In this document: positions 8,789 to 48,086 of the stretch, one piece after another | Layout of the letters: every line of letters begins with the position of its first letter | Position numbering within the stretch: position 1 is the first letter of the stretch | DNA from: an uncultured virus (IMG/VR IMGVR_UViG_3300032007_000039) | Taxonomy: Duplodnaviria; Heunggongvirae; Uroviricota; Caudoviricetes | IMG/VR virus record: IMGVR_UViG_3300032007_000039 | Length of the DNA: 64,000 bases | Direction: 5' to 3' (one strand) | Made by a program: the position numbers and the translations under genes | The notes under the pieces: generated by a model | Databases searched by the model: none | What the model saw: only the letters and a program-made list of their open reading frames with translations | What the model was told of the DNA's origin: nothing

Positions 8789-9080
8789 TAATGTATTCTA
8801 ATCAGATTTTAAGGTTGATTGACCATTTGTAAAATGTTTTATAATTATAAACTGAATTGAAATAAAACATTTTACAGTATATAACCGCCGCCGAGCTATA
8901 CACTATTTTAGCGAATTGTAAAATGTTTTATACATAGCGAGGTTTTTATGTATACATGTATACATAAAAAATCTTTTGATTTATGGTTGACAAGTAAATA
9001 TAGGTGTGCTACAATATACTTGTAAGGTTGATAGAGAGACACCTTACAGAAACGGTTTAAGTATATAGGAGGAAACAATC

Positions 9081-9356
9081 ATGGAAAACATGGAACTGAA
9101 ACAGAACATTGTCAATGCTATTGAAACACTTGAAGAAGTTGAAGGGATTTCTTTGGAGGTGTGTGGGTCATGGCTATGGGTTGATGGTGATACCAAGCCT
9201 GTAAAGGATTTGATTAAATCCGTAGGTGGTAGATGGGCAGCAAAGAAGAAAAAATGGTATATCCGTCCTGAAGGGGCTAAATGGTTTCATAGGAAAGAGC
9301 AGGACATGGAACGTATTCGTGAAGGATACGGAAGTGTCATGGTAAAAGAAGTCTAA
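9081..9356 (+). CDS. small phage protein with a GSWLWV...RWAAKKKKWY domain (DUF5710-like)
   Basis: motif resemblance; promoter, RBS and terminator present. Confidence 0.8.
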   Translation: MENMELKQNIVNAIETLEEVEGISLEVCGSWLWVDGDTKPVKDLIKSVGGRWAAKKKKWYIRPEGAKWFHRKEQDMERIREGYGSVMVKEV

Positions 9357-9711
9357 AGACTTCATACAGGCAGGTGGAAAAATCCACCTGCTTTTATTTT
9401 TTGTAATGTATTCTAATCAGATTTTAAGGTTGATTGACCATTTGTAAAATGTTTTATTGTGAAAATTGATACAACAATAAAACATTTTACAAATATAGTT
9501 TATCTGTTTTTGTAAAATGTTTTATGATGTATAACTAGATGAATTTTTATAATATATTCTAATCTAATTTTAAAATTGATTGACAATGCGACAATTTTTT
9601 AATTAATCTTTTAGCAAAAAATATATAAAACATATTGACAAAAACAATATAGTAGTCTATAATGTATAGTGTAAGGTCAAGGAACAGAGTAAAGTGATAG
9701 GAGGAATTGTC

Positions 9712-9903
9712 ATGAAGTACGTAGTGATTAAATTTAAAGAGATGCAGAAGATTCTGCGGAACAATGGGTATACCTTAGATAGATATAATGGAGACCATTA
9801 TATCTATGTGAAAAGAGGTACTAATCATATCTCTATTAATAGGGAACTTAATCCTATGGTCGCTAGGCGGTTGATTAAGGAGAACAATCTGATTGTTGAA
9901 TAA
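9712..9903 (+). CDS. hicA: HicA-family mRNA interferase-like toxin, no adjacent HicB
   Basis: KEMQKILRNNGY..R.NGDHYIY pattern, 63 aa, GGAGG RBS before ATG 9712. Confidence 0.75.
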   Translation: MKYVVIKFKEMQKILRNNGYTLDRYNGDHYIYVKRGTNHISINRELNPMVARRLIKENNLIVE

Positions 9904-10236
9904 AACAATCACAGAGGGCGAAAGCCCTCTTTTAATTTATCTTAAAATTTGATTAGACAAATTTTAAGATAAATTAGCTATTTGTAAAATGTTTTATAAA
10001 GTTATCAGTTTTCAAAATAAAACATTTTCCAATTTATTGGATAGGCAATTTTGTAATGTAAAATGTTTTATTACTCACGAATTGTACATAAACTATCTAT
10101 ATAATGAAAAAAAATTTTTTCAAAAAAATAAAAAAAGTATTGACAAACATATGCAGGTTTGATATACTTAAACTGTCGAAAGGCGATAGAGAGAAATCGC
10201 CTTTAGGGTTTATAAGATTTATGGAGGTATACTATT

Positions 10237-10923
10237 ATGTTTACTGTTACTAACATTCTCACGGTCGCTTTTAATCAGATTGCCAAAAATGGCTATATCA
10301 AAAAGACAGTCGTTGATGGGGAACGTTGGGTGCGCCGTTATGGTCGTAACACGCTCGTTCCGAATTATGTAGAGCAGGAGGGAAACACCTGCCGTGCTAC
10401 GTTGAATGCACTCAAAGCAGGTGATGTATCGTCTGATGAGACACTTGCGCAATCGTGCATTAGCACGTATCGTGCGTTTGTGGAGAAGAATCCAAATGAT
10501 TTTGGGGAGCGTATGCTTTCCCTGCTTGCCAAAAGCGAACTTGACGAAGCAGATGTAATGCAGGTAGCTTTTGTACCTGTATTCTACTTCAAACAGAAAA
10601 AGCACGATGAAGCCATTCGTGCTCGTGAAGAAGAACGCAAGGAATTCAACAATAGCCTTGCAGGTGGTTTCTTTGCAGAAGTAGGTGAGAAAATTAGTAC
10701 GTCCGTTACCCTTATCAAACAGGGTGGTTTTGATGGCGCGTATGGATACACACATATCTATACATTCCTTTCGGAAGATAAACACGTTCTCGTGTGGTTT
10801 AGCACGAAAGATATTGATGTAGAAGTCGGTCAAATTGTCAATATTTGTGGTACAGTCAAAGGTCACAAAGAGTATAATGGTACGAAGCAGACCATTATCA
10901 CTCGTTGCAAGGTTAGCGAATAA
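10237..10923 (+). CDS. protein with a C-terminal OB-fold nucleic-acid-binding domain
   Basis: GQIVNICGTVKGHKEYNGTKQTIITR motif. Confidence 0.75.
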   Translation: MFTVTNILTVAFNQIAKNGYIKKTVVDGERWVRRYGRNTLVPNYVEQEGNTCRATLNALKAGDVSSDETLAQSCISTYRAFVEKNPNDFGERMLSLLAKSELDEADVMQVAFVPVFYFKQKKHDEAIRAREEERKEFNNSLAGGFFAEVGEKISTSVTLIKQGGFDGAYGYTHIYTFLSEDKHVLVWFSTKDIDVEVGQIVNICGTVKGHKEYNGTKQTIITRCKVSE

Positions 10924-11370
10924 CCTTGCAAGAAGTTAGAGGGTTGAAAAAACCCTCTTTTTTTTTGTGTCTAAAATCGTTTCTAAGCGCGTTTAATTAG
11001 CAAGGGTATATAATCATACCTGTTTTGATTTTTAGACAGTCAGAAACGATTTTAGCGTGTGTGAGCGTGATATATAGCACGTAGTTTATCCACCATCAGA
11101 CACGATGGATTGATTCGATAAAAACATTATGTATATTTACATAAAACATTTTACAATTTGCATAAAACAGTTTTTTTGTAAAATGTTTTATTTACGATAA
11201 CTGCTACGGTTTGTAAAATGTTTTATCTATTCACACCTGCCAAAAAAATTTTCAATTTTTATAAAAAACCTATTGACAAAAGCCTGTAAAAGAGTATAAT
11301 AATAAGTGTCAAGGGGATAGAGAAACCCAAGACAAACGGTTCAAAGGTGATTGAAAGGATTGTGATTACA

Positions 11371-12078
11371 ATGGCACTCAAAAGATTTACCTATGAAAAT
11401 AAGGTTATGACGAAAATGCTCCATGAAGTTCTTACGGACGCGAAAAACGTCGGAATTGACTTTATCAAATTGGCGGAATTGCCAATTGATTTGAAGGTGT
11501 ATCGCTCTAGTTGCGGTCGCCGCGCTATCGCTATGGCATTTAAGACATTCGATAAAGAGTGTCACCGCAAGATGTTTAAAATCGTCTTTTCAGATGAATA
11601 TGCAAAGAAACTTACAGGCCAGCATGGTAAAACCGTTCTCATGCACGAATTGGTTCACACATTGCCAAAATGCTTTAATCACGGCATGGAATTTAAGGCA
11701 TGGGCAAGAAAAATCAATCGTCTCCTGCCAGGCTACAATGTTGATACTTCCTGCCGGGGGGAGGAATGGGAAGCGGTTTGTGAAATCATGGATGGGAAAC
11801 GAATTGATGAACCGCGAAAGGTTATCAAAAATGAGCCTGTAAAACCAATTGAGCGTAAATTCGATAATGGGATGAGAACCTTTATCGGTTCGATTACAAT
11901 GAAAAATGGTAAGGTTAAAGTCGTTGCGTTGAAAAACGCGCTTATCAAATGGATTGACGCAAAAGAATTTGAAAAAGCACGTCAAGCGAAAATGATTGCG
12001 CCTAGCGCGTTTGAGCAAGCTATGAATATGGCAGGTATGAAGAAACGTGCAAAAGCGTTTGCCAATTACAAAGGATAA
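11371..12078 (+). CDS. SprT-like zinc metalloprotease
   Basis: LMHELVH...NHGMEFK. Confidence 0.8.
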   Translation: MALKRFTYENKVMTKMLHEVLTDAKNVGIDFIKLAELPIDLKVYRSSCGRRAIAMAFKTFDKECHRKMFKIVFSDEYAKKLTGQHGKTVLMHELVHTLPKCFNHGMEFKAWARKINRLLPGYNVDTSCRGEEWEAVCEIMDGKRIDEPRKVIKNEPVKPIERKFDNGMRTFIGSITMKNGKVKVVALKNALIKWIDAKEFEKARQAKMIAPSAFEQAMNMAGMKKRAKAFANYKG

Positions 12079-12442
12079 TGACGAAAGGAAGGGAATAAAA
12101 TCCCTTCCTTTTTTGTTTTCTATACTATCAGAAATCATCTCTAGCAGGTGTTTATCTATGATTAGGTATTCTGATACCTGTTAGCATTTTGAAATGACAT
12201 ACAAACAAAATAGGATGTAATAATCATTGTTACAAAATTGTGCAAGATAAAACATTTTACATTTTATGATTATGGATTGAAAATTTGTAAAATGTTTTAT
12301 CTTTGATTGCATACGCATATAGTATACATTTTTAGAAAAAGTTTTTTCTTGTATACATATAAAAACTATTGACATTGATACTAAAAAGAGTATAATAGTA
12401 AGTGTCAAAGGGAAATGGTTCAAACAAATGGAGGTTTTAGAA

Positions 12443-12520
12443 ATGGAGTATGCAATCGGTTATATGGCATTTGCTATCGTTGTTTGTAGAACATGGAATG
12501 ACTTTGTGAATATATTCTAA
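12443..12520 (+). CDS. 25-aa hydrophobic peptide MEYAIGYMAFAIVVCRTWNDFVNIF
   Basis: own TTGACA/TATAAT promoter and GGAGG RBS; below ORF-track cutoff. Confidence 0.6.
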   Translation: MEYAIGYMAFAIVVCRTWNDFVNIF

Positions 12521-12686
12521 AATCCGTTCACAAAAAAATCACCAAGCGATAAAAAAGTGCTTGACATTCTTCTCAAAGCGAGTATAATATAAAGTGTAAG
12601 GAACAAGAGAAAATGGATGATGCAATTGTAATTCTCAACAACTATATAAGAACAAAAATTAGAAGAAAACTAAGGAAGGAAAAATT

Positions 12687-13088
12687 ATGTTTGAGCAAAG
12701 AAAAAATATTCGAGATTTTGTAAATCGACTTATAGAAGGTTTCCCAGAAAGCAAAAATCCTAAATGGAGATATATTTTATTCTTTAAAGATTCTATTAAT
12801 GGCTTTGCATTTTCAGCACCTTATCTTGACAAAAGAGAATGTCATGGACGAGTTATTCTTAACATCCCTCAAATATCGAATCTTTGTAAAGGAGACGGGA
12901 AAAGATTTGCTAGTTTTTTATTAATGAACTTGTACCATGAAACACAACACACATATCAATTTGATTATATGAAAGAAAACAAATTAGATATAAGAAATTG
13001 TTTACTAAAACATCAAGAAAAATTAGAAAAACAAGCTATTGAAGCTATGAATAATCTAAAATATGATTTTGATTTTTCATATCTTTAA
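12687..13088 (+). CDS. putative HExxH metallopeptidase-like protein
   Basis: LYHETQHTYQ...LEKQA. Confidence 0.65.
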   Translation: MFEQRKNIRDFVNRLIEGFPESKNPKWRYILFFKDSINGFAFSAPYLDKRECHGRVILNIPQISNLCKGDGKRFASFLLMNLYHETQHTYQFDYMKENKLDIRNCLLKHQEKLEKQAIEAMNNLKYDFDFSYL

Positions 13089-13378
13089 TTTGAGGGAAAA
13101 TGTTTACTGTAATAAGTACGGTTCTGCCAGAACAGATACATTAGGGGATGAGAAATCATCCCCTAATTTTATTGTCTAATTTTTATATAAGGTAATTTTA
13201 ATCTAGGTTGATTGACTTTAATTTATTTTTAATTATTGAAATGTTGTAAAATGTTTTATCTTAATTCATCAATAAAAATTTTTCAAAAAAATATACAAAA
13301 CATGTTGACAAATAATTTACATAGTGCTATACTATATTTGTAAGGTTGATAGAGATAAAATAAATGGAGGTAATCATT

Positions 13379-13612
13379 ATGGTACTGACAGAAAAAGATG
13401 TATGGGATATTTTAGAACATGGTCGAATTCGTAATATGCCCGAAAAGACGTTTATTGGAGGTCTTACTCAACCCGATGGACAATCGTTTCCGATTGATGT
13501 ATTAGACACAGGATGGGCAGGTTGCCGTTTTCATTTAGAAACTGAATTATTGAAAGCGTTAGGTGGTATTGAATTTTGGTTAGTTATTGATAAGGGAAAT
13601 TGGGAGGAGTGA
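13379..13612 (+). CDS. hypothetical protein
   Basis: cassette with promoter, GGAGG, terminator. Confidence 0.85.
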   Translation: MVLTEKDVWDILEHGRIRNMPEKTFIGGLTQPDGQSFPIDVLDTGWAGCRFHLETELLKALGGIEFWLVIDKGNWEE

Positions 13613-13926
13613 TTTAATCAGATGGGGAGTACTCCCCATCTTTTTTAATATAAAATATTAAAACATTTTACAATTTTTGTTCGGTATAATTTTTGTAAAA
13701 TGTTTTATGGCTTGACTATATGATTTTGTATATAAGATACATAAAAAAAGTATTGACAATGATAGCGCAGTATGTTATTATAAAGACAGTTAAGCGGTCA
13801 CAATCATTATTAAACACAAAAAATTTCAAAAAAAATAATAAAAAAATTCTTGACAAAATAACATATATATGATATACTAAAGTCAAGAAATGAGAGATAT
13901 GGTTCACAAGAAAGGAAGTAATTACA

Positions 13927-14220
13927 ATGAAATTCGCAGACGTTAAAGTTTACAACATGACCTCCCACAACACGGAACGTGAAGTTCCGAATCAGTTTAA
14001 AATCCATGCCAATGGTGGTGTATATTTTCAGAGTTACAATACGGTTATTGCTTTTGTAAAGGATAATCACGTATCAATCATTCGTGGTGGTCTTGACTAC
14101 TCTACGACTACAAACAAATGGTTGTATCAGTTCTTAGAGGAAGAAGCAGGGTTATGGCAATTGAATAAACGCAAGGTTTCCAAAATGATGGAAAGCGGTG
14201 AGATTGAAACTGTGGAGTAA
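13927..14220 (+). CDS. phage hypothetical protein (FQSY..IA...DYS.TT.K motif)
   Basis: cassette structure and motif. Confidence 0.85.
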   Translation: MKFADVKVYNMTSHNTEREVPNQFKIHANGGVYFQSYNTVIAFVKDNHVSIIRGGLDYSTTTNKWLYQFLEEEAGLWQLNKRKVSKMMESGEIETVE

Positions 14221-14450
14221 AATTCACATAGGGAGGGCGGAAGCCCTCTTTTTATTTGCCTTAAATTTTTTCTAATTAAATTTTAAGGTTGATTGACTAT
14301 TGTAATAAATTGATTTTTGTAAAATGTTTTATTCACTATACCTACTGAAAAATTTTTCAAAAAATATAAAAAAGTTCTTGACATACATAATATTATATGG
14401 TATACTGTTTACAGAGATAAGGAAATAGACAAATTCAGGAGGTAATTGAA

Positions 14451-14708
14451 ATGTACTACTACGTTAAAGAAGTTGCGTCTCGTGATGGGAAATTCAGAGG
14501 AAAAGAGGATATTAAAATCCGTAAATTCAAAACTTACGCAAGAGCGCAGATTGCATTTAACAAGAGCGCAAATGCTTTGCGTGAAATGATGGATAAAGCC
14601 CTTGCGAATGGCGCAGATTTTACGAAAGATGATAATAATGTAAGTCTGTTGATGTATTACAGTAACCGTTCGTATAGAAGGTTTGGCGTTACACTTTATA
14701 AGCATTAA
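14451..14708 (+). CDS. hypothetical protein, last plus-strand cassette before the convergence point
   Basis: promoter, AGGAGG, terminator. Confidence 0.85.
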   Translation: MYYYVKEVASRDGKFRGKEDIKIRKFKTYARAQIAFNKSANALREMMDKALANGADFTKDDNNVSLLMYYSNRSYRRFGVTLYKH

Positions 14709-14892
14709 AAAATACCTGCTAGAAACATAATCTAGCAGGTATTTTTTTTGTAATGTATTCTAATAAAGTTTTAATCTAGGTTGATTGACTATTGTAAAAT
14801 GTTTTATCAAATATCAAAATGTGAGCATAAAACATTTTACAGAAACACAAAAGTAAAAAAATACGTATGAATCATTCATACGTATTTGATAT

Positions 14893-15321
14893 TTACATAG
14901 CGTTTTCTGCCATAGCCCAATATAACTGATATTCAATATCATATTTACCTGCATTGTGAGTAATTTTCTTGCCTTTTAGATAATACGTTACATATACATT
15001 ATCATCAAATTTATAATGTACCATTTCCATTTTAACAGGGATACGATGGGAATAGTTATCCATAATGACCATAGTTCCAATATGCTTACATGGGATAATA
15101 TATCCTTTGTAAATCTCATGCTTACGTCCTGCCTTGTCTTTATACACCCTTACTTTAACCACATCATTCTCTAGTGCTAAGTACTGATTATTTACTGTAT
15201 CAGATACAAGCAGGTAATTTGTGTTACCATTGACGTATTGTGTTTGGTATGGTTTTATGTTTGCAAAGGCAATAGAAGAATAAAACAACAACATAAGCGT
15301 AAGCATAACAATCTTTTTCAT
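14893..15321 (-). CDS. exported hypothetical protein
   Basis: Sec-type signal peptide MKKIVMLTLMLLFYSSIAFA. Confidence 0.8.
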   Translation of the reverse strand: MKKIVMLTLMLLFYSSIAFANIKPYQTQYVNGNTNYLLVSDTVNNQYLALENDVVKVRVYKDKAGRKHEIYKGYIIPCKHIGTMVIMDNYSHRIPVKMEMVHYKFDDNVYVTYYLKGKKITHNAGKYDIEYQLYWAMAENAM

Positions 15322-15338
15322 TTTATAAAACCTCCATA

Positions 15339-15764
15339 TTAAACCGTTTTGATAAATGTATATTCTGTTACATTTACTTCTCCTTTAGGAATATCGTTCA
15401 ATTTCTCTAGCATAGCATTGTGCTTAATGCGTCTCTTGCTAGGATTTGTCAACGCTTCAATCTCTTTCATATTGCGCTTATCCCTGCTTGTAGGGAAAGA
15501 CACAATAAGTTCCCCCATTACATTAAATGTGATAGTTTCTTGACTTTTATCAAAGTCATAGCTTGTCACATTCGGACAATCAATCATACCATACCTAATT
15601 TCACCCTGCATGAGATATTTTGCCATATACTGATAATAGGTATCAGTAGGGTTATCTTCACGATGAGACAAAATGTAATTATGGATATTTTTTGTTACCG
15701 TTCCTTTTACATGAAAAAGGAAGTTTGTATTGTCTACATTTTTGAAAATATCGTCATTGTACAT
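15339..15764 (-). CDS. hypothetical protein
   Basis: promoter and AAAGGA RBS. Confidence 0.8.
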   Translation of the reverse strand: MYNDDIFKNVDNTNFLFHVKGTVTKNIHNYILSHREDNPTDTYYQYMAKYLMQGEIRYGMIDCPNVTSYDFDKSQETITFNVMGELIVSFPTSRDKRNMKEIEALTNPSKRRIKHNAMLEKLNDIPKGEVNVTEYTFIKTV

Positions 15765-15877
15765 TTTAATCTTTCCTTTCTGCTATTTATATATAAAGTA
15801 TACCATAAAAATGGATATTTGTCAATATAAATTATATAATAAAAGGCACGATGTTTTTACGCATCGTGCTTTTTTTG

Positions 15878-16063
15878 TTAATTCATTTCTTCCGCAGACC
15901 CTTCAATCACGGCAGGGTCATCTGATTCTGAAATATGAAAGTCTGAATTTGGAATTTCATCCAACTTATCCCATGCAATGGATTCTGCTTCTTCAGCACT
16001 TTCCGCTTCTATTTCCACAACTGCAAAGGCAGGAAGTTCAACGACAACATTATACTTTTTCAT
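15878..16063 (-). CDS. small acidic protein (VEIEAESAEEAESIA pattern)
   Basis: cassette; start trimmed to follow the RBS. Confidence 0.75.
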   Translation of the reverse strand: MKKYNVVVELPAFAVVEIEAESAEEAESIAWDKLDEIPNSDFHISESDDPAVIEGSAEEMN

Positions 16064-16387
16064 CCTAATCATGTCCTTTCTTTTGATGGGTTGTTTTTCA
16101 ATTTCTGTATTTATTATAGCGCACAATTCGCAATTTGTCAATAGGTTTTTTATATTTTTTGATAAATTTAACCGAATAAAATGTGATAAATATTCGTATA
16201 AAACATTTTACAAAAATTGTTTGTATGTGGATTGTAAAATGTTTTATTTTAATATGCAAATAAAAAGGACGGATATTCAATATCCGTCCCAAAGAGGATT
16301 ATTCGTCCTCGTCATCACCATCAAACAGAGTGTCCCAACATTCCGCGCCCGTCCCGCTAATAAGCACCTCGCGCTCGTCAGCACCGT

Positions 16388-40149: not shown

Positions 40150-40398
40150 TTAAATATCCTCTAGCGAAACTCCATCTTCAGTCATAGATATTTTTGTTAA
40201 AATCCATGACTTATCAATTACCATTGTTGTATCATCTTTACCTGTATAAACCATAATTATTGGTTCATTACCAAGATTAATGATACTTTTCACAGTAACA
40301 ATCTGGTCTGCTAAATATTTTCGTTTTAGTTCTTCTTCTTTAGGCAAATCATTAATTGGTTTAATGACTACAGAATCGCCAATTTGCAAATTCATCAT
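40150..40398 (-). CDS. hypothetical protein
   Basis: AAGGAG RBS. Confidence 0.8.
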   Translation of the reverse strand: MMNLQIGDSVVIKPINDLPKEEELKRKYLADQIVTVKSIINLGNEPIIMVYTGKDDTTMVIDKSWILTKISMTEDGVSLEDI

Positions 40399-40562
40399 AA
40401 AAGTCTCCTTATTGTGATTTAATCTTTCTTAAAAACATTAACCAGCGTAGGTAATCTTTATTTTGTCTCTTTGTTTTATTATATATCATAGATTTTTATT
40501 TGTCAAGACTTTTTGTATTTTTTTGTTTTTGAAATAAAAGCAGGAATTTCACCTGCTTTTAT

Positions 40563-40775
40563 TTAATCACGTTCACTATGATATTTTACCTCATCATAAA
40601 TTCCTTCAAGTGTAATGCGTAACCTACGTTCTGTATTGGCAAAAGCAATATCATAACGTTCATCTGTTGGAAGATTAATGCGAACAACCACATAATCTCC
40701 TGCAATTTTCGTTACAAGATAATCATTGTTTTTATCCATAGCATTGATTTTTTCAAGCAAATCGAAAATCTCCAT
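40563..40775 (-). CDS. hypothetical protein
   Basis: cassette. Confidence 0.85.
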   Translation of the reverse strand: MEIFDLLEKINAMDKNNDYLVTKIAGDYVVVRINLPTDERYDIAFANTERRLRITLEGIYDEVKYHSERD

Positions 40776-40904
40776 TTGTAACTACCTCCATTAACACTTA
40801 AATTCTTGTTTCTATGATTATATAATAACACATGATACAATATTTGTCAAGAGCTTTTGTATATTTTGTTTTTGAAATAAAAGCAGGAATTTCACCTGCT
40901 TTTT

Positions 40905-41470
40905 TAATATGCGTTTTTATGTTCACTACAAGACTGCACTTCATTATAAATTCCTTCAAGCATAACGTCAAAATTACATATAAATAAGAATAAATATGTA
41001 TAATTTTGTTTAGAATTCTAAATTCAAAGTATCGTTAATGTACTCACCTTAATCTTTTTTCAAGATACGGTATTTTGTTTAATTAATTCTATGTATGTTG
41101 TTTTGAATTCTTCGTGGGTTTTGTAAATTGGAATGAATTTATTTGGTTCAATTTCCTGATGACAGGATTTTTTCAAAACGTTTGAGAGAATCCTGTTTTT
41201 TTTAGTTTCAATATTATTTCACCTCCATCCTGTATTAAATATATGTCAAATTAAACATTTTATGATATATTTGTACAAAAAGTTGCAAAATAATTACTTG
41301 TAATATATAATACGTAACATGTTTTCCATATCCACAAAATTATTACAAATTTTGTCTGTTTCAAGATTTATACGCCTAAGTACATAATGTCATCCTGCAA
41401 ATTTCGTTACAAGATAATCATTGTTTTTATCCATAGCAACTAACTTTTCAAGTAAATCAAAAATCACCAT
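40905..41470 (-). pseudogene. disrupted duplicate of 40563..40775
   Basis: 5' half at ~41340-41470 (near-identical DNA, in-frame TGA) and 3' end plus terminator at ~40860-40960, separated by unrelated DNA. Confidence 0.7.
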
Positions 41471-41595
41471 TTGCAACTACCACAACAAAAATATTTATCA
41501 ACTATGTACAGTATATCAAATAATTTTCTATATGTCAATAAAAATTGCTATCATAAAACATTTTACAATAAAAAATAGAGGATATATATCCTCTA

Positions 41596-42825
41596 TCACG
41601 TTAAATCTTTTGTTTTTTGTAAATATGTTTCTATTTCGTTCATAGTTATATATCTACCTGCTTTTGTTTTTATCAAACTAATAGGCATATGATTTTTCAA
41701 ATTAAACATATATCCTTGATATTCTTTTGGTACTAATTTTTGTACTGACTTCCCATAATCAGATTTATTATTTATATTCTTCACTATATCATAATATCTA
41801 TATATCATATCACGTTTTATACGCATATATGTATATATTTTTTCTGCTTTTTCATTCAAAACAGTATGATATACAGTAGGAACTTTAGCCAACAAATCAT
41901 CATAATAATCATCTGCTATAGCTTTAATAATTGTTTTACTAGATGTTTCATCTGATAGTATATGACTTAATTCCAAATAATCAGTACACTTTAGTTTATA
42001 TCTATGATTATCAATTGTGATAACCCAACCCTCTTTATCCGAACCTTTGTAAGTATCACGATTACACATAACTTCATTGAATGATTTTGTATCTATTTGT
42101 GTCATAGGAATATGATACTTATCAGAAAATTCTTTTTTAATATACTTATATCCATATTCTATTCCATTTGTGACATTACGTACACCAATCAGATAAATAC
42201 CCTGTTGTGATTTATCATAGATAACTACATGCCTATCATTCAATGAAATATATTCAAAAATGAATGTTTTATCAGGATTATTCATAATCATTTGTTTGTG
42301 ATTATATGATAGCATAGTTTCTGCTTCTGCCAATCTAAAATTTTGTTCTTTATCTAATGACCCTGTACCACCTAACACAAAATGATTATCATAATATCTA
42401 ACAGACAAAAGTGAACCATCTAGTTTATTTGTTATTTCTACATCTTTTGCATTTTTCAAATATGATTGAATTTTATCAATATATGTTTCTTCAATCTCGC
42501 CTATATTGAAAAATTTTCTAAATGGACATAATACAATTGTATCTTTTTCTACATCTATTGTAAGACCACGCATTTCACGATAAATAGAATTTTCATTACG
42601 ATATATATCATTGTCTCCACCTTTAATAAGTGAATATTTGAATAAATTATATGTTCCATACACAATGATATTTACGCATTTCAAAAAGTTATTATATTTA
42701 TCTGTATTTAAATAGATACACATATCTTCTACACTATATGTATCTAGTTTATCTATTTGCTTTTTGTTCATATACTGATATTTTATCTTCATAACATAGT
42801 TATATGCTATATTCCAATCAAACAT
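41596..42825 (-). CDS. T4 Rnl1-like RNA ligase
   Basis: PFRKFFNIGE, motif I KLDGS, FEY, EGWV, KLK. Confidence 0.85.
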   Translation of the reverse strand: MFDWNIAYNYVMKIKYQYMNKKQIDKLDTYSVEDMCIYLNTDKYNNFLKCVNIIVYGTYNLFKYSLIKGGDNDIYRNENSIYREMRGLTIDVEKDTIVLCPFRKFFNIGEIEETYIDKIQSYLKNAKDVEITNKLDGSLLSVRYYDNHFVLGGTGSLDKEQNFRLAEAETMLSYNHKQMIMNNPDKTFIFEYISLNDRHVVIYDKSQQGIYLIGVRNVTNGIEYGYKYIKKEFSDKYHIPMTQIDTKSFNEVMCNRDTYKGSDKEGWVITIDNHRYKLKCTDYLELSHILSDETSSKTIIKAIADDYYDDLLAKVPTVYHTVLNEKAEKIYTYMRIKRDMIYRYYDIVKNINNKSDYGKSVQKLVPKEYQGYMFNLKNHMPISLIKTKAGRYITMNEIETYLQKTKDLT

Positions 42826-42987
42826 ATTGTATCACCACCATATACAATCATATCATTTATAGAAATATTTGTCAATCAAAATTTGTAAAATGTTTTATAC
42901 CAAATCAAATTCCAAATCATAAAACATTTTACAAATATCATAAAATTAAAAAGGAAAGGTTTCCCCTTCCTTGTACTTTATCAACGC

Positions 42988-43497
42988 TCATAGTGTACTT
43001 TCGTGTACTTTCAGATTGTATTTCTCAATCAGATTATCTGCTTTGTGTTTCCAAATTTCATGCAGATTATTTTCATAGATATAGATTGCAAGCGTCCCCT
43101 TAATCCCTTCATCATCTGCGCCCTTGCAAAGTGCAATCAACTTTTCTGCTTCATCAACAGACACAAGCAGGTGATTTGCAAGTGCTTTTACGTCATTATT
43201 TTTAATGAAGTATGCACCATTTTCCACCTCATACATTGGGCAACCGTCCACGTCACGAAGATGAAATTCAAATAAATCTGCAATAGCAGGGAACTTGCGT
43301 TCCGTATCATGAAGGCAAGCACCAAAGGAAACAGGATTAGCATAACGCTTATCACGTTTACCTTTTCTCGTGGCTTTCCATGTTTCATGCGTCACGGAAA
43401 AATACGGCTTCTGCTTTCCAATCTGATTAAGCTCTCCAAAAACAGTAATCAGATACCCATTGGAAATTTTGTTTGCGACCTCGTAATTGTTGAACAT
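42988..43497 (-). CDS. hypothetical protein
   Basis: cassette. Confidence 0.85.
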   Translation of the reverse strand: MFNNYEVANKISNGYLITVFGELNQIGKQKPYFSVTHETWKATRKGKRDKRYANPVSFGACLHDTERKFPAIADLFEFHLRDVDGCPMYEVENGAYFIKNNDVKALANHLLVSVDEAEKLIALCKGADDEGIKGTLAIYIYENNLHEIWKHKADNLIEKYNLKVHESTL

Positions 43498-43788
43498 TGT
43501 AATTACTTCCTTTCATACGTGAACCTTATCTCTATGGTTATATATTACCACATCTTAGATACTTTGTCAAGAACTTTTTTATTTTTTCTTGGTTACTGTA
43601 TCTATTGCCTTTCGACACTTATATAGTAACACATATCAATATATTTGTCAATAGTTTTTGTATATTTTTTTTGAAAAGATTTTATTCGTATAAAACATTT
43701 TACAAAAATCAATATACACAAAATTGTAAAATGTTTTATACCAAATATTGTTTATCAAAAGAAGGAAGAACTATTTCTTCCTTCTTGC

Positions 43789-44163
43789 TTATTTTGTTTT
43801 AGACAAATTATCCCAAAAACTTTGTGACGGTTTAGCAGATGAAAGAATATAAATATCCAACCCTTCATTATTTCCAACACATTCAAATCCACTAGATTTA
43901 TATAAATTAACTGCTACTGTATTGTCAGGTGCTACACACAAAGCATTTGCTCCTTTTTTCAAGCAATAATCAAATAATGTCCTGCCTAATCCTTGACCTC
44001 TAAATTGTGGTTCAATTTCTAAATTACCTACCCATGTAAGATTATCAGATGAATATTTGTATAAATCTACTGTACCTAAATAAGTAGCCCCGTTATACAT
44101 ATTAATATTCGTTTTATTTCCTTCTTGTTCTTCTTCAAATTTGATATTAGCTAAACGTTTCAT
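43789..44163 (-). CDS. GNAT-family acetyltransferase
   Basis: IEPQFRGQGLGRTL...N..AVNLYKSSGF. Confidence 0.9.
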   Translation of the reverse strand: MKRLANIKFEEEQEGNKTNINMYNGATYLGTVDLYKYSSDNLTWVGNLEIEPQFRGQGLGRTLFDYCLKKGANALCVAPDNTVAVNLYKSSGFECVGNNEGLDIYILSSAKPSQSFWDNLSKTK

Positions 44164-44253
44164 AATATTATCTCCTATATAAAACATTTTACATTATTAT
44201 TATATCGGTATCTACCACTATTTATTATATTTATAGAAGGGTGGAATACAATA

Positions 44254-44655
44254 ATGGATAATCCGTATGAAAAATTACAGCCTAAATCATTTACTCTATT
44301 GGCAGAACAACAAATAAATGATATTAATCATAAAGGGATTATGGGTAAAAATCTATTTATCAAAACATGTATAAATAATATGTATGATTACATAGATGAA
44401 TTTTATTTTGATTTGTTTACAAATCACATAGACATATTTTATTTTATGACGGTTTACGATAATGGCAACGAAAATATTATTGACAAAAAATTAAGAGACA
44501 TTATAACTAACACATTCATACAAAGTTATTTGCATATTGTCAACAATAATTTATTAGATAAAAATATATTCAATCAGTCACTTATAAATAAAACAATCAA
44601 ACAAGTTTTTGATAACCCTAGAAAAGTAAATATGCTTTATAAAAAGAACAATTAA
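44254..44655 (+). CDS. hypothetical protein
   Basis: ORF track. Confidence 0.65.
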   Translation: MDNPYEKLQPKSFTLLAEQQINDINHKGIMGKNLFIKTCINNMYDYIDEFYFDLFTNHIDIFYFMTVYDNGNENIIDKKLRDIITNTFIQSYLHIVNNNLLDKNIFNQSLINKTIKQVFDNPRKVNMLYKKNN

Positions 44656-44744
44656 ACCTTCTAAAATCGTTTGTATCACGTTTTAATCAACAAACAGATA
44701 TAGTTATATACGTTACATAATTTAACTATGCTACAATCGAAATT

Positions 44745-44782
44745 TGACATCCTCCAACGACTGAAGTCGTTGGATTCCTAAG
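44745..44782. mobile_element. IS200/IS605-like end hairpin (remnant)
   Basis: CATCCTCCAACGACTGAAGTCGTTGGATTCC. Confidence 0.5.
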
Positions 44783-44819
44783 TGACTAACGTTTCTTGCT
44801 ACCTCCACGGCAGTCTTAA

Positions 44820-45410
44820 TCATAAAGAAGCCCCTGCCTTTTTAAACTGGAAAAAAAGAATTCCACCTAAAGCATTTCCTAATACATTAGTTGCTAAGAA
44901 AGGAATATTAAAAGTTCCACACGCTGACATAAAGAAAAAGTTTGCTACACAGTGTTCAAACCCACAAAATACAAAGACCGTAACGCAGAAAATTACAAGC
45001 AAAGAATTCTTTTGAGTTTTCCACTCATTGACAGCTAAGAAAATAAGAATATTACAAAAGATAGCTTTGCAAAATACCATCAATAAAGTTTCGGACAATT
45101 TATTTTGTAATATAGTCGAAACATTGCTTTCAATTCCACAACCAAGGAAAACTAAAGCACAAAGACCAATTCCAATAAAATTACCGAATAAAACCGTTGC
45201 ATTATCCTTCAAACTTTTTAACGTAGGTGTAGAACTGCATACAAAACCTGTAAATAATTTAAAAGCATGAACACATACAGCTAAAAGACCTACTGAGAAA
45301 AGGACAGCCCCAATTAATTTATTAGGAGACACAGCAAGAGAAATACACCCTATACCAATGCTCCAACCTGCCAAAAAAGAAGAATATATATAAGATTTAA
45401 ATTCACTCAT
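44820..45410 (-). CDS. formate/nitrite transporter (FNT) family channel
   Basis: multiple TM helices; LFTG, GNFIG, AIFCNILI, GFEHCVAN, GNALGG. Confidence 0.9.
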   Translation of the reverse strand: MSEFKSYIYSSFLAGWSIGIGCISLAVSPNKLIGAVLFSVGLLAVCVHAFKLFTGFVCSSTPTLKSLKDNATVLFGNFIGIGLCALVFLGCGIESNVSTILQNKLSETLLMVFCKAIFCNILIFLAVNEWKTQKNSLLVIFCVTVFVFCGFEHCVANFFFMSACGTFNIPFLATNVLGNALGGILFFQFKKAGASL

Positions 45411-45434
45411 GCCAATCACTCTTTCTAACAAATA

Positions 45435-45935
45435 TTAACCTTCTAATATCTTATCAAAAAGGCAAACTTTTAATGGAATTTGAGAATAATATTCCCAATC
45501 ATTCATCAGTCTATCAAATTCATCTGCCCATTCAGAATATTTACGAATAATCAATAAAACAGGAACATTCTCTCGACAACTTTCCATAACAAATTCTTTT
45601 AAATCATCAATATCAACAAATTTATTCAAAATAGTCTCTGCGTTTCCACTAAAGAAAGTGCCATCATCTTTCATTACATAGAAATCATCATCATAAGAAA
45701 AATGCTCATTATCTTTAGAGTCAATAACTGGTCTAAAAATCTCTGCTTCTGCCTTAGAATAAATTTTCATCATATTTTCGTCTTTTTCAGCTTGAATATT
45801 ATAAAGCTCTACAACAGCTTCTTTAGGAAAAGAATCAAATACTTCAGAAAACTTATCTGTATGAGCATCAATTTGTTTTGCTAAATTATTGGAGTAGTCA
45901 ATTTCTTTTTTGTATTTCTCTTTTAAAAAGCCCAT
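45435..45935 (-). CDS. hypothetical protein
   Basis: ORF track. Confidence 0.8.
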   Translation of the reverse strand: MGFLKEKYKKEIDYSNNLAKQIDAHTDKFSEVFDSFPKEAVVELYNIQAEKDENMMKIYSKAEAEIFRPVIDSKDNEHFSYDDDFYVMKDDGTFFSGNAETILNKFVDIDDLKEFVMESCRENVPVLLIIRKYSEWADEFDRLMNDWEYYSQIPLKVCLFDKILEG

Positions 45936-45951
45936 ATTTCAACTTCCTTTC

Positions 45952-46434
45952 TTAACGAAAATATTCAACATAATTATCAATAATATATTTTGTATCTTTA
46001 TAAATCTCTTTATCAAACTTATTCACTAAAACAGTTGGTTCATTATCAGAAGGATTTTCCTTCCAATAATCAATGTCTATCCAATCCTCAAATTCTCCCC
46101 AAAAAGCATTATAATCTTTTGTTTTACCTCTGATATCTATAAAATTATCTTCTTCATCTATACAAAAAGAATGAATAAGGCTTTTTTCGTATGAATACAC
46201 ATTTACAATTTTATATCCAAACTGTTTATGTAATCTTAATGCAAAAATATTGCAAAATCCATGAAGAAAATCATACAGACTTAATTTATTTTCAGAGTTT
46301 GGAATAAAACAAGGTTCTTTATCATTGTTAATAACAATAATATCTTCCAAAAAAGAAAAATCTGTATTTTTATTATCATTAAATATTACTGCCCCTTCAC
46401 GATAAAAATCTTGTAATTCCATATCTTTGAACAT
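45952..46434 (-). CDS. hypothetical protein (HGFCNIFA..LH...HSFC...DIRG)
   Basis: cassette. Confidence 0.8.
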   Translation of the reverse strand: MFKDMELQDFYREGAVIFNDNKNTDFSFLEDIIVINNDKEPCFIPNSENKLSLYDFLHGFCNIFALRLHKQFGYKIVNVYSYEKSLIHSFCIDEEDNFIDIRGKTKDYNAFWGEFEDWIDIDYWKENPSDNEPTVLVNKFDKEIYKDTKYIIDNYVEYFR

Positions 46435-46633
46435 TGTAACTCATTCCTTTCAATACTGTTTATCTCTATGGTTATAGAATATCACATATATAGCTTTTTG
46501 TAAAGATGTTTTTTATATATTTTTGAATTACAAACTTTTGAATAAAACATTTTACAAAAGTACATTAAACAAAAATGCAAAATGTTTTATTTTTATATAT
46601 CAAAATAGGCAGGATATTTCACCTGCCTATTTT

Positions 46634-47161
46634 TTATTTCTTGATACGCTTACGATTTTTCAAACCGATACGAAATGAATAACCGTTATCCATAACATAT
46701 TTCAAGTAGTCTCTTAATTCCTGTTCATTGTAAATACCTCTTACACAAATCTCTTTTGCAATCATACAATCTGTGTTATCTTTTTCATTATACATGATAT
46801 AAAGCAAATTGCCTTTATCCACAAACTGTTTCACACTATCTTTAGCTCGTTTAACGCTATTCCACAAACCATTATAAAAGTCAATAACCTTAATGCTATC
46901 ACTTGTATGACTTGTGAAAATCTGTGTATCTTCTTCATCACCGAACCACTTATCACAAGTATTGACAAGATACTTGTGCCATTGTGCTACCGTCTTAACA
47001 GGTTTTTCACCATCGAAAGAAAACCATAAGCGTTCATAAACCTCCCTTCTTGTTGTATAATTAAACTCTGTACAATTCGATGAACCAATGCACCAAAGTA
47101 AAAGAACTTCATCGTTTGAAAGTTTAATGCCTACACGGTCATACATAATTGAATAACTCAT
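46634..47161 (-). CDS. hypothetical protein
   Basis: GGGAGG RBS before ATG 47161. Confidence 0.85.
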   Translation of the reverse strand: MSYSIMYDRVGIKLSNDEVLLLWCIGSSNCTEFNYTTRREVYERLWFSFDGEKPVKTVAQWHKYLVNTCDKWFGDEEDTQIFTSHTSDSIKVIDFYNGLWNSVKRAKDSVKQFVDKGNLLYIMYNEKDNTDCMIAKEICVRGIYNEQELRDYLKYVMDNGYSFRIGLKNRKRIKK

Positions 47162-47441
47162 TTCAATTACCTCCCAATCGAACCTGTGAACCTCTTTATG
47201 TTTATATATTATCACATCTTAGATACTTTGTCAAGAATTTTTTTATTTTATTTCTCTCAAAACATGTTTTGTTTCTATGGTTATATATTACCACATATAT
47301 ATAATATTGTCAACAATTTTTTTATATAAATAGATATAATAAAACATTTTACAAACAAACTAGTTCCATTGAAAAAATGTAAAATGTTTTATATCAAAAT
47401 CATTTAGTAAAGCGATAGGAAATTTCCTATCGCTTTACCCA

Positions 47442-47813
47442 TCATATTTGTCTCATTCGTTTATCAACACTTTGCATACATTCAATCGCTTTTTGTCTGA
47501 TTGATTTCTCATGACCTGTATAATAACGTTTCAACAATTTATCGTATTGCATACAAAAAAAGTCTTTTTCGTTACTAGTTAATGTCTCCACATCAAAATC
47601 AATCTGAACGTTTTTACCGAATTGCTTTCGCATAATATCAGTAAAGCTAGTTTGCATACCGAATTTGATAAACGTTTGTTCATCGAACAACATCGAACTT
47701 GCTCGTCGTTTTACATCTAAGCAATTTGCATAGCAACAAACGATAACACTCTGCCCATTGTCGCTCAAGAACTTCAAAACTTGTTGACGAATATGCTTAT
47801 TATCCATAAGCAC
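47442..47813 (-). CDS. hypothetical protein, paralog of 48087..48440
   Basis: V.KFL.DNG...YAN.LD.KR...TF...MQ..F...M..FG. Confidence 0.85.
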   Translation of the reverse strand: MLMDNKHIRQQVLKFLSDNGQSVIVCCYANCLDVKRRASSMLFDEQTFIKFGMQTSFTDIMRKQFGKNVQIDFDVETLTSNEKDFFCMQYDKLLKRYYTGHEKSIRQKAIECMQSVDKRMRQI

Positions 47814-48086
47814 ACCTCCTATTTAATTGTTAGAGAACTTATTCGGAACAATCTCTCCTGTTCCTTACATTGTACATGATAGCACGCTAGCTACATATTG
47901 TCAATGGAATTTGTATAATTCTAATATGCTTCTAATGATAAATTTTACAGATAAAACATTTTACAAAATATCAGTATCATTGAAAAAGTGTAAAATGTTT
48001 TATTCATTTTATAATTTTATCAGATAAAACATTTTACAAAAAAAGCAATATAAAAATAGGGAATGAAAAATCATTCCCTATGATAA

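Follow-up and report, generated by a model that had tools for sequence, protein, structure and literature searches.

A Repeated Word in the Small-Gene Block of a Phage G-Like Virus

The window analyzed here is a stretch of 64,000 bp from the 281,186-bp genome of a giant gut phage related to Bacillus phage G. Phage G is its closest sequenced relative (portal protein 67.5% identical over 83% of its length). One block of this window (2586..48589) contains every one of the 70 exact genomic copies of the word TGTAAAATGTTTTA, which form 40 intergenic clusters among small genes, each with its own promoter and terminator. When up to two mismatches were allowed, 80 matches were found in the window (70 exact, seven with one mismatch and three with two), against 7.1 expected (sd 2.4); none of 100 shuffles was as high, their maximum being 14. 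In eight relative contigs summed, 132 exact, nine one-mismatch and ten two-mismatch copies were counted. The 14-bp site reported in the first-pass annotation is real and far above chance, but the conserved word is longer, the full 16-mer being TTGTAAAATGTTTTAT (54 exact copies). Its invariant bases include TTG, TG and AT, and it also holds A4 and T4 tracts. The word itself is not a promoter, since a TATAAT-like hexamer was found 16–18 bp after its TTTACA in six of the 70 copies, against a background of 41/568 for all genomic TTTACA.

A promoter-like site was detected within 130 bp downstream in 34 of the 40 clusters, with 28 sense-oriented and six opposite-oriented promoter-proximal copies (one of these six was spurious); the other six clusters had no promoter nearby. 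Read on the sense strand, the unit begins with the terminator that ends the upstream gene, in many cases an inverted copy, an unconserved spacer of 19–25 bp and a sense-oriented copy. The latter is followed by a gap of about 5.2+10.5n bp, and then come an A-tract upstream element, TTGACA and, 17 bp on, an extended -10. The distal inverted partner, often present, lies about 35 bp upstream of the promoter-proximal copy. Unlike the word, the spacers and gaps are not conserved.

These inverted pairs could instead act in RNA, as long hairpins in read-through transcripts serving as processing or stability signals. All four pairs tested folded into 16–18-bp stems (-13.5 to -19.1 kcal/mol, z -5.3 to -6.4), as they would because they are inverted repeats. 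An RNA-level role is nevertheless extremely improbable: many promoter-associated copies are single (e.g., 13245, 14318, 20758, 31768, 39216, 39633, and 41554), some copies spaced about 35 bp apart share one orientation, the element sits between terminator and promoter, and the phasing to the -35 box described below is not expected of an RNA signal.

Phasing of the Promoter-Proximal Copy to the -35 Box

Gaps were obtained by an automated scan that started from each promoter-proximal copy and took the nearest downstream promoter-like site, defined as a -35 with at most one mismatch to TTGACA, a 16–18 bp spacer and a TAnnnT -10. The 28 gaps counted by hand in the first-pass annotation were returned, except that one value of 70 became 69. 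The sites are on the minus strand unless marked (+). The shortest core gaps were 15 bp (41510..41567, single copy, TTGACA-17-TATACT) and 16 bp (30424..30482, TTGGCA-17-TATGAT). Next came gaps of 25 bp (29484..29551, TTGACA-17-TAATAT), 26 bp (18846..18914, TTGACA-17-TACTAT; 21030..21098 and 47285..47353, both TTGACA-17-TAATAT; 22855..22924, TTGACT-18-TATACT), 27 bp (19355..19424, TTGACA-17-TATACT) and 28 bp (20102..20172, TTGACA-17-TAGTAT; 20701..20771, single copy, TTGACA-17-TAATAT). Gaps of 34 bp (17386..17462, TTGACA-17-TATCAT), 37 bp (39567..39646, single copy, TTGACA-17-TATACT), 38 bp (39149..39229, single copy, TTGACA-17-TATACT; 46476..46556, TTTACA-17-TATTCT) and 39 bp (43623..43704, TTGACA-17-TACTAT) completed the short half of the set.

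Among the longer core gaps, 45 bp was found at 13694..13781 (+, TTGACA-17-TATTAT), 46 bp at 13245..13333 and 14318..14406 (both +, single copies, TTGACA-17-TATACT), 47 bp at 11212..11300 (+, third copy of a three-copy cluster 35 bp apart, TTGACA-16-TATAAT), 33165..33254 (one mismatch, TTGACT-17-TATACT) and 47876..47965 (TTGACA-17-TATCAT), and 48 bp at 31691..31781 (single copy, TTGACA-17-TAATAT). The remainder were 54 bp (23893..23989), 56 bp (8917..9015, +, TTGACA-17-TACAAT), 57 bp (16113..16212, TTGACA-17-TATAAT), 60 bp (35649..35751, single copy, TTGACA-17-TATTAT) and, twice, 69 bp (10057..10168, TTGACA-17-TATACT; 12286..12396, TTGACA-16-TATAAT; both +). Kept outside the core set were gaps of 110 bp (9511..9663, +, TTGACA-17-TATAAT), 45 bp (26134..26221, weak promoter TTGAAA-17-TACAAT) and 52 bp (16821..16915, degenerate copy with two mismatches), and three gaps of 29 bp (8876, 9491, and 10031) ending in weak TTTACA-16-TAAAAT matches. 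The last three matches are antisense to the plus-strand gene block and lie within another repeat.

The first-pass annotation had proposed that the gaps cluster about 10.5 bp apart, and the automated set agrees: a Rayleigh test of the 28 core gaps at 10.5 bp gave R 0.695, Z 13.5 and p ~1.4e-6, and the maximum of a period scan from 5 to 20 bp fell exactly at 10.5. This maximum was equaled by none of 5000 uniform sets and none of 5000 sets jittered by +/-5 bp. R was 0.637 when the gaps of 110, 45, and 52 bp were added, and 0.575 (p 1.3e-5, best period 10.4) for all 34 rows. Within 2 bp of 5.2+10.5k lay 23/28 core gaps and 24/34 of all rows, where 48% were expected. The length classes were +/-2 bp wide, with outliers at 34, 54, and 60 bp in the window. 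In the off-phase gap of 54 bp the 8-bp unit GACGAACA stands twice in tandem; the matching site of a relative has it once, with a gap of 46 bp. At some in-phase gaps (13694 and 47965) the distal A-tract is absent.

The phasing is restricted to the promoter-proximal, sense-oriented copy. With n=17 each, R was 0.646 for the proximal copy and 0.31 for its distal partner. Opposite-oriented proximal copies, a few of which had already been noticed as misfits, were off the pattern at gaps of 14 bp (28803..28859, TTGACA-17-TATAAT), 18 bp (35195..35255), 35 bp (38146..38223), 8 bp (42847..42897) and 11 bp (48471..48524), all on the minus strand, and no phase was seen in this orientation (R 0.30, n=8). 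A relative carries the promoter of the first of these sites with an opposite-oriented copy at a gap of 37 bp. Orientation is coupled to distance from the promoter: gaps of at most 18 bp occurred in 5/8 distinct opposite-orientation sites and 2/48 sense-oriented clusters (Fisher p 2.8e-4, with the threshold picked post hoc).

Promoters and Candidate Binding Proteins

The predicted promoters are near-consensus (TTGACA-17-TGnTAnnAT) and carry strong A-tract upstream elements, phased at about -44, -54, and -66 with or without the motif. Of the 69 strong promoters of this type in the genome, 27 lie outside the motif block, where no motif copy occurs. In this phage G-like jumbo phage the block carries small accessory genes, and the promoters that share the word there, about 35 in number, are sigma-A/sigma-70-like. 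Given their near-consensus sequence and strong upstream elements, they do not look activator-dependent.

A Pfam search of the 91 open reading frames of the window yielded no DNA-binding domain above its cut-off. Searched for across the whole genome, the families of phi29 p4, HU/TF1, AbrB-type proteins and sigma region 2 had no matches (for p4, PF05464, at E up to 1), and the HTH_3, RsfA, and Myb matches in the genome were all below cut-off. The phage does encode a protein of 219 aa in which a sigma-70 region 4 domain was detected (38.5 bits, cut-off 24.1) but no region 2; its gene is situated in the structural half, where a late sigma factor would be expected.

The word might require no dedicated factor and be an additional upstream element, intrinsically bent or bound by alpha-CTD, whose register with the A-tracts would let the upstream DNA wrap polymerase. 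The phased A-tracts fit this idea, as do the computed starts of the T4 tract of the word (about -56, -66, -77, and -87), within roughly 1 bp of the A-tract series, and AAAATGTTTT, which we take to resemble the distal UP-element subsite. It is distinctly unlikely all the same. Curvature or alpha-CTD binding needs A/T tracts alone, not 16 invariant bases with TTG, TG, and AT; the A4 tract misses the register of the A-tract series by about 3 bp; promoters outside the block do without the word; and direct use by alpha-CTD is weak beyond -60, where the majority of copies are found (up to -111).

Recurrence in Relatives and the Cassette Structure of the Block

In the eight diverged relative contigs, whose flanking DNA is 65–98% identical, cassettes have been replaced and moved, so that the relatives are mosaics. 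Look-alike gaps were collapsed across the window and these contigs, reducing 80 sites to 48 clusters of dissimilar gaps. These were still phased (R 0.527, p 1.6e-6, best period 10.3, jitter null 0/3000); therefore, the signal does not stem from recent duplication. The 23 relatives-only clusters gave R 0.465 and p 0.007 (V-test against the phase of the window, p 0.003), with the maximum of their own period scan at 11.6 and not 10.5, which amounts to a modest replication of the phasing. Outlying gaps in the relatives were 40, 44, 49, 49, 51, and 63 bp.

The block resembles the promoter-early stem-loop (PeSL) cassettes of T4-type phages, described as a strong sigma-70-like promoter plus a stem-loop terminator per gene (PMC2839356), in being a hyperplastic block of small genes, mostly of unknown function, with mosaic relatives and exchanges at intergenic modules. 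It differs in lineage, G-like and not T4-like, and the PeSL unit as presented in the abstract of that report consists of promoter and stem-loop, with no separate invariant 16-bp phased word (PMC2839356). The word could be the edge of such cassettes shuffled by recombination, the phase being a by-product without function: a few ancestral upstream modules (about 26, 37, and 47+ bp) built of 10–11-bp A-tract units would have been spread by recombination inside the conserved promoter. Besides the mosaicism and the A-tract phasing that is independent of the motif, terminators are enriched (26 vs 6.0 expected at 16000-35999), and 30/62 ends of BLAST matches of at least 300 bp fall within 50 bp of a motif copy, a raw count for sites in intergenic DNA, where breakpoints are expected anyway. 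The same promoter also carries other gap classes in relatives (37 vs 46, 110 vs 46, and 69 vs 46), as upstream-module swapping would produce, and length classes could be inherited by recombination between cassettes instead of being selected each time.

A mere cassette by-product is still unlikely. Unconserved filler DNA separates the word from the first A-tract and differs in sequence within a class, yet its length is independently quantised (about 4 bp in the 37–39 class and about 15 bp in the 45–48 class). Matching sites do differ by indels of one and two bases (47/49, 34/36, and 36/40), so that unselected classes should blur. Moreover, dissimilar gaps remain phased, only the proximal copy keeps the phase, and a recombination site does not explain 14–16 invariant bases with a fixed promoter-ward orientation. 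The first-pass annotation had favored a transcriptional role over a pure recombination site; the phasing, which a purely recombinational site would not predict, speaks for that preference, but a recombination or cassette role may coexist with the transcriptional one.

A similar 14-mer, AAAAACAGTTTACA, occurs about 58 times in the small-gene block of phage G itself (58 copies with at most one mismatch, 380-497.5 kb), a repeat that the promoter, motif, sigma and intergenic passages of the phage G genome paper do not describe (PMC12484599). In G, this 14-mer serves as the -35 region of a promoter (AAAAACAGTTTACA-17-TATAAT, with the -10 at 17 bp in 55/58), whereas here the word is a separate element that stands 15–70 bp upstream, is reversed in most cases and has no -10 of its own. 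Since AAAAACAGTTTACA matches the reverse complement of the word, TAAAACATTTTACA, at 12/14 positions, the word could be a re-deployed, inverted upstream-element and -35 module of phage G-type promoters, docking sigma-A region 4, RNA polymerase or the region-4 protein of the phage. Held in register with the genuine promoter, it would work as a trap or an antenna. We consider this very unlikely: although a region-4 protein is encoded, nothing links it to the word and its location is the one expected of a late sigma factor, no -10 follows the word above background, and the likeness between two AT-rich 14-mers may be chance.

A Proposed Oriented Site Facing RNA Polymerase

The reading we prefer, which we rate at about an even chance, is that the 16-bp word is an oriented cis-regulatory protein-binding site common to about 35 predicted host-type promoters in one 46-kb block. 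A requirement for one helix face relative to the promoter is well supported, because the phasing is limited to the proximal sense copy and recurs in diverged relatives; in this respect, the fixed face suggested earlier holds up. A sequence-specific factor, phage-encoded or from the host, would bind the promoter-proximal copy and would have to occupy one face relative to promoter-bound RNA polymerase. If transcription starts 7 nt after the predicted -10, the site centers would lie at about -58, -69, -79.5, -89, -99.5, and -111.5. The factor might touch polymerase, for example its alpha C-terminal domains, which would also use the phased A-tracts, or it might bend the upstream DNA in the plane of the A-tracts.

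The earlier proposal of a class I activator gained no support from any test: the promoters are near-consensus, 27 lie outside the block and the searches for a binding protein were negative. With promoters already so close to consensus and furnished with phased A-tracts, activation is no more likely than timed repression or an architectural role, and a co-ordinated switch (timed shut-off, over-stabilisation or whole-block insulation) would be more likely than simple recruitment. The phasing makes the word a likely docking site of a regulator.

Such a site has partial parallels. The phi29 p4 protein, a Bacillus-phage factor, acts on sigma-A promoters from upstream sites, and its target is given as 5'-AACTTTTT-15 bp-AAAATGTT-3', read partly through A-tracts (PMC1904284). 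An exact AAAATGTT is present in the word, and the same relative half-site orientation is seen in the inverted pair (CATTTT-N25-31-AAAATG); a match so short and AT-rich may be fortuitous. In contrast to p4, the half-sites are 25–31 bp apart instead of 15 bp, many sites are single and the p4 family has no match in this genome. The marbox of MarA/SoxS/Rob is described as having one orientation in class I sites, upstream of the -35, and the opposite one in class II sites overlapping it (PMC12052159). In both systems the site is asymmetric, orientation is tied to distance and helix face matters: here upstream copies (gaps of at least 15 bp) are sense-oriented, and 5/8 opposite-oriented ones abut the -35 at gaps of 8–18 bp. 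In sequence the word does not resemble the marbox, and the searches above turned up no AraC-type protein. Unlike the marbox, the sites of this phage span over six turns, to about -111, stand at near-consensus promoters that do not look activator-dependent, and often occur as inverted pairs about 35 bp apart.

A block of small genes in a jumbo phage related to phage G

The window corresponds to positions 158,472-222,471 of one contig, which is 281,186 bp long and has 28% G+C. Its portal protein shares 67.5% identity with the Bacillus phage G portal over 83% of the length (next best matches ≤30%), so the source is a jumbo phage, uncultivated and akin to phage G. A megablast search with window 8000-20000 had zero matches in the phage collection, and the runs containing window DNA carry the label bovine gut metagenome.

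Small genes form a block in window 2,500-48,600. A Pfam scan of the 91 ORFs of the whole window left the majority without a family; the products named in the block were HicA, a SprT-like protein, Hsp20, HPr, an RNA ligase, a GNAT acetyltransferase and a formate/nitrite-transporter-like protein. A promoter-like and a terminator-like site were found at nearly every gene of the block, with 26 terminator-like sites in window 16000-35999 against 6.0 ± 2.4 expected. To our knowledge, almost nothing is known about the control of such large blocks of small accessory genes in phage G-like giant phages. Host-like accessory genes (Hsp20, a PTS HPr-like protein and the formate/nitrite-transporter-like protein) lie at window 35847-37166 and 44820-45431. 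Outside the block, nrdD, which encodes anaerobic ribonucleotide reductase, is split into pieces (window 58035-63991): the Pfam scan detected an nrdD ORF with a LAGLIDADG-containing intein (62678-63991) and a C-terminal nrdD piece (59550-60473), the latter adjoined by two HNH endonuclease genes (58035-58631 and 60592-61140) and a GIY-YIG endonuclease gene (59006-59386).

An invariant word marks the promoters of the block

The 14-mer TGTAAAATGTTTTA (the word) had 80 matches in the window with up to two mismatches, compared with 7.1 expected, and 0/100 shuffles came near this number. The exact copies, 70 in 40 clusters, were all confined to the block when the whole genome was counted. One flanking base per side was also conserved (A in 74/77, and A in 61/77 on the complementary reading), giving the 16-mer TTGTAAAATGTTTTAT with 54 exact copies; no conservation was found in the DNA adjoining the 16-mer. 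The usual order on the sense strand was a terminator, an inverted copy TAAAACATTTTACA, an unconserved spacer of 19-25 bp, the sense-oriented copy, the gap, an A-tract element TATAAAAAAnnnn and then TTGACA, 17 bp and a TG-extended -10. Pairs with facing TTTACA ends were spaced 33-39 bp in 22 of 24 cases, the nine pairs of the other inverted arrangement 28-38 bp, and one of the two direct-orientation pairs 35 bp. A mobile element was rejected because the DNA between paired copies is not conserved.

The copy at window 44180-44193 occupies a short intergenic stretch flanked by diverging - strand and + strand genes. The scan detected no consensus promoter to its left or right, and it counts among the six clusters that lack a promoter nearby. 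A second repeat, TTTTAAGGTTGATTGAC, had eight matches (≤3 mismatches) against 0.87 expected, with exact copies at window 8807-8823, 9422-9438 and 14281-14297 and copies with two or three mismatches at 9568, 35712 and 50109. The exact copies are located at the 3' ends of + strand units, directly upstream of a word copy at 8807 and 9422 and about 20 bp upstream at 14281.

The promoter-proximal copy is in helical phase with the -35 box

The first-pass annotation had counted by hand 28 gaps between the proximal copy and the -35 hexamer and had proposed a periodicity of about 10.5 bp. An automated scan for the first promoter-like site downstream of every promoter-proximal copy recovered these gaps, the sole difference being 69,69 where 69,70 had been read. 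They were used as the core set, from which six rows were excluded: gap 110 at 9511, gap 45 at 26221 (weak -35), gap 52 at 16915 (word with two mismatches) and three gaps of 29 at 8876, 9491 and 10031, which are weak matches, antisense to + strand genes and inside another repeat. The proposed periodicity was borne out by the Rayleigh test on the core set (n = 28, R 0.695 at 10.5 bp, p ~1.4e-6), where the period scan was also best at 10.5 (controls: 0/5000 uniform, 0/5000 jittered). Adding gaps 110, 45 and 52 (n = 31) gave R 0.637 at 10.5 bp with the same best period, and all rows together (n = 34) gave R 0.575 at 10.5 bp (p 1.3e-5, best period 10.4), with 24/34 gaps within 2 bp of 5.2+10.5k against 48% expected.

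The gaps thus follow the series 5.2+10.5n bp. Assuming that the predicted start lies 7 nt after the -10, the word centres would be near -58, -69, -79.5, -89, -99.5 and -111.5. Among paired sites (n = 17), the proximal copies gave R 0.646 and their partners R 0.31, which was not significant; therefore, the proximal copy is the phased element. The word pairs fold well as RNA, but many copies are single, the element sits between terminator and promoter, and an RNA would show no phasing to the -35 box; a hairpin is therefore very unlikely.

The phasing is shared by mosaic relatives

A metagenome scan for the inverted pair yielded eight contigs besides the window's own record, all of them mosaic relatives with 65-98% identity where alignable. 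They hold 132 exact, nine one-mismatch and ten two-mismatch copies of the word, and contribute 52 further sense-oriented proximal sites, which were pooled with 28 window sites and clustered by gap sequence. A stricter promoter score was applied to the pooled window set, in which gaps 110 and 45 were retained and two core rows lost. The 80 pooled sites formed 48 clusters with R 0.527 at 10.5 bp (p 1.6e-6, best period 10.3, jitter null 0/3000). The relatives-only clusters (n = 23) gave R 0.465 at 10.5 bp (p 0.007, jitter null 11/3000) and a phase of 4.4 bp compared with 5.2 in the window (V-test against the window phase, p 0.003). This replication is modest, since the relatives-only period scan peaks at 11.6. 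The phasing is real, specific to the proximal oriented copy and common to the relatives.

Gaps of matching sites differed mainly in homopolymer runs, by one or two bases (47/49, 45/46, 28/29, 34/36, 36/40). At 23989, where the gap of 54 is off phase, two tandem copies of the 8-bp unit GACGAACA are present; in a relative the unit is single and the gap is 46. Three promoters recurred in relatives with wholly different upstream DNA (gaps 37 vs 46, 110 vs 46 and 69 vs 46), and in these exchanges of gap class the phase was held within about 2 bp. Such retention would be expected from selection, and equally from the swapping of whole upstream modules, so that the phasing could reflect inherited cassette classes of a shuffling system. 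The PeSL system of T4-type phages, as described in part of its report, consists of such shuffling cassettes (PMC2839356), and the strong sigma-70-like promoter and stem-loop terminator that stand between the small genes of a plastic region there were also found here: there are 69 promoter sites in the genome (42 in 160-210 kb), terminators exceed expectation (26 vs 6.0) and most ORFs are without a Pfam family. Of the match ends, 30/62 fall within 50 bp of a word copy, although this is a raw count without a null and intergenic breakpoints are expected anyway. We regard inherited cassette structure as an unlikely explanation, though one to be reckoned with; even if the phasing came to no more than this, the block would still be a clear PeSL-like shuffling region outside T4-like phages.

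Orientation of the word changes close to the -35 box

Of the window's proximal copies, 28 are sense-oriented and six opposite-oriented, one of the latter (gap 3) being a spurious promoter match inside a pair. The distinct opposite-oriented sites of window and relatives have gaps of 8, 11, 13, 14, 18, 35, 36 and 37 and show no phase of their own (R 0.30); the first-pass annotation had already noted that a few opposite-oriented copies miss the pattern. Gaps of 18 bp or less were found in 5/8 opposite-oriented sites compared with 2/48 sense-oriented clusters (Fisher p 2.8e-4, with the threshold chosen post hoc). In the part of the literature consulted, the asymmetric marbox of MarA/SoxS/Rob is likewise flipped when it is placed next to the -35 (PMC12052159), and the orientation of the word also flips with closeness to the -35.

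Near-consensus promoters with phased A-tracts

Judged by sequence, the -35 of most word-associated predicted promoters is an exact TTGACA, separated by 17 bp from a TG-extended -10 and preceded by A-tract elements. Promoters of this type can do without the word: the genome has 69 TTGACA-N14-TGnTAnnnT sites, and 27 of them fall outside 160-210 kb, in sequence with zero copies of the word.

Phased upstream A-tracts are a known pattern of Bacillus sigma-A promoters, and here the A-tracts upstream of the -35 were phased with or without the word. Counted position by position, AAAA began in 37-79% of 30 motif-bearing vs 25-41% of 59 motif-less promoters at -45 to -42, in 24-48% vs 14-17% at -55 to -52, and in 19-26% vs 8-14% at -68 to -64. 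The unconserved filler between the word and the last A-tract differs by gap class, being about 4 bp long for gaps of 37-39 and about 15 bp for gaps of 45-48, and in-phase gaps entirely without a distal A-tract exist (13694, 47965). The placing of the word is more than simple abutment on the last A-tract.

The UP element, the site of alpha-CTD, is A/T-rich and loosely conserved, and lies at about -40 to -60. Only the 15-16-bp gap class places the word near -58, the other classes placing it at -69 to -111.5, and the word is invariant over 16 bp, whereas UP-like A-tracts sit between the word and the -35. The word as merely another phased A-tract was rejected, because bending does not need its invariance. 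The word's invariance also counts against the broader possibility of an intrinsic bend or an alpha-CTD element, which we consider improbable.

Search for a binding protein

No DNA-binding Pfam domain scored above cut-off among the 91 window ORFs. Whole-genome searches for sigma region 2, phi29 p4, HU/TF1 and AbrB/MazE families gave nothing, and those for RsfA, Myb and HTH_3 gave sub-threshold matches only, the RsfA match holding four internal stop codons. Two proteins are candidates for the binder, and nothing more. One, of 219 aa, has a sigma-70 region 4 domain (38.5 bits) without a detected sigma region 2 and is encoded on the - strand at genome ~101,847-102,506, where a DNA methylase gene adjoins it. 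The other, of 121 aa, is an HTH protein whose HTH matches are weak (genome ~256,179-256,544, - strand).

Beyond the phage, the inverted-pair pattern had no matches in viral_contigs, where the single 14-mer occurred in at least 116 one-copy stretches that were taken as chance matches. In genome_contigs, one exact pair was found in a Flavobacteriaceae assembly (positions 2369-2416, 20-bp spacer), just upstream of a 263-aa ORF that by eye resembles an XRE/S24-type repressor. No other exact copies were found in that genome and no homologue of the ORF in the phage; as the sole exact occurrence there, beside an ORF without a phage homologue, the pair was dropped as a lead to the binder. It may be an unrelated operator.

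Comparison with known regulatory sites

The likeness to class I activators proposed in the first-pass annotation stands for the geometry, with whole-turn spacing on one face (R 0.695, n = 28; R 0.527, 48 clusters) as at CRP-like and MarA-like class I sites, but fails for the core promoter, which by its bases is near-consensus rather than sub-optimal and activator-dependent. Our preferred reading, held with about even confidence, is that the word is an oriented, putative protein-binding site that is required to face RNA polymerase and co-ordinates a regulon of ~35 promoters. Since the promoters are near-consensus, a factor at the word would more likely act as a switch or shut-off than by recruiting polymerase.

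The phi29 p4 protein offers a precedent, by analogy, for one upstream factor acting on such promoters, and no membership of its family is claimed. According to the portions of the reports consulted, its target is AACTTTTT-15 bp-AAAATGTT (PMC1904284), and p4 is required for activating a late promoter and for repressing strong early ones (PMC3100819). The half-site AAAATGTT is contained in every word copy. However, the inverted half-sites CTTTTT/AAAATG of p4 are 15 bp apart, whereas the word pairs read CATTTT-N25-31-AAAATG, which exceeds the p4 site by roughly one helical turn or more, and many copies have no partner. The whole-genome search with PF05464 for a p4-family protein gave 0 matches at E up to 1, a search that small fast-evolving proteins can escape.

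Phage G itself has a similar 14-mer, AAAAACAGTTTACA, with 58 copies (≤1 mismatch) in 380-497.5 kb, and its TTTACA is the -35 box, followed by TATAAT 17 bp downstream in 55/58; no TTGACA-type site was found in that region. The consulted part of the phage G genome paper gives genome-wide software predictions only and does not mention the AAAAACAGTTTACA repeat (PMC12484599). For the word itself, a role as sigma-A -35 box was rejected: a TATAAT-like hexamer follows its TTTACA by 16-18 bp in 6/70 copies, equal to the whole-genome background of 41/568 (7.2%). With TGTAAAATGTTTTA set against TGTAAACTGTTTTT, the two related phages would seem to put similar words to different uses, unless the likeness arose by chance. 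On this comparison the word could be a docking site derived from a promoter, an ancestral G-type upstream-element and -35 module, AAAACAnTTTACA, which was detached from its -10, inverted and set in helical register upstream of a new TTGACA promoter, so as to dock sigma region 4 of the host RNA polymerase or of the phage 219-aa protein. Both the docking role and this origin seem to us quite doubtful; if true, the regulon of ~35 promoters could be switched by one factor, and strength or timing would depend on how many helical turns separate word and promoter.

In the block of a phage G-like jumbo phage, ~35 promoters are thus marked by a single invariant, oriented word of 16 bp. Its quantised spacing across six helical turns is a natural series of the spacing variants that are normally built by hand to show face-of-the-helix dependence. 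The word may be used as bait for the regulator, and promoters expected to behave alike can be picked by their distance class. Phage G, in which the similar word is the -35 region, offers a contrast through which the change of promoter modules into operator-like sites can be studied.

Downstream promoter-like sites and RNA contigs

Several word-associated promoters are followed 73-86 bp downstream by a second strong promoter-like site without a word of its own. The promoter scan placed the successive -35 starts, all on the - strand, at 47313/47234, 43651/43570, 39177/39093, 18874/18788 and 35223/35143/35070.

RNA contigs from four metatranscriptome runs of four studies were placed on window 8000-27999, and the following concerns those listed (32 of 544 pieces, 24 of 348 loose ends). 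A tandem duplication variant in related strains was seen at window 17195-17316, where RNA-library contigs of three runs jump back 122 bases with eight extra letters. Among the pieces listed, long ones end at 15797 (two runs), 18821-18824 (four runs) and 22823-22834 (four runs), close to predicted starts, as far as contigs, which cannot show starts, ends or strand, can tell. Listed pieces also stop at 21178-21193 in three runs, adjoining a terminator, again with the limit that contigs cannot show true ends. In three runs listed pieces extend to 20154-20219, and the two longest of these (to 20188 and 20219) enter or cross the motif pair at 20159-20208.
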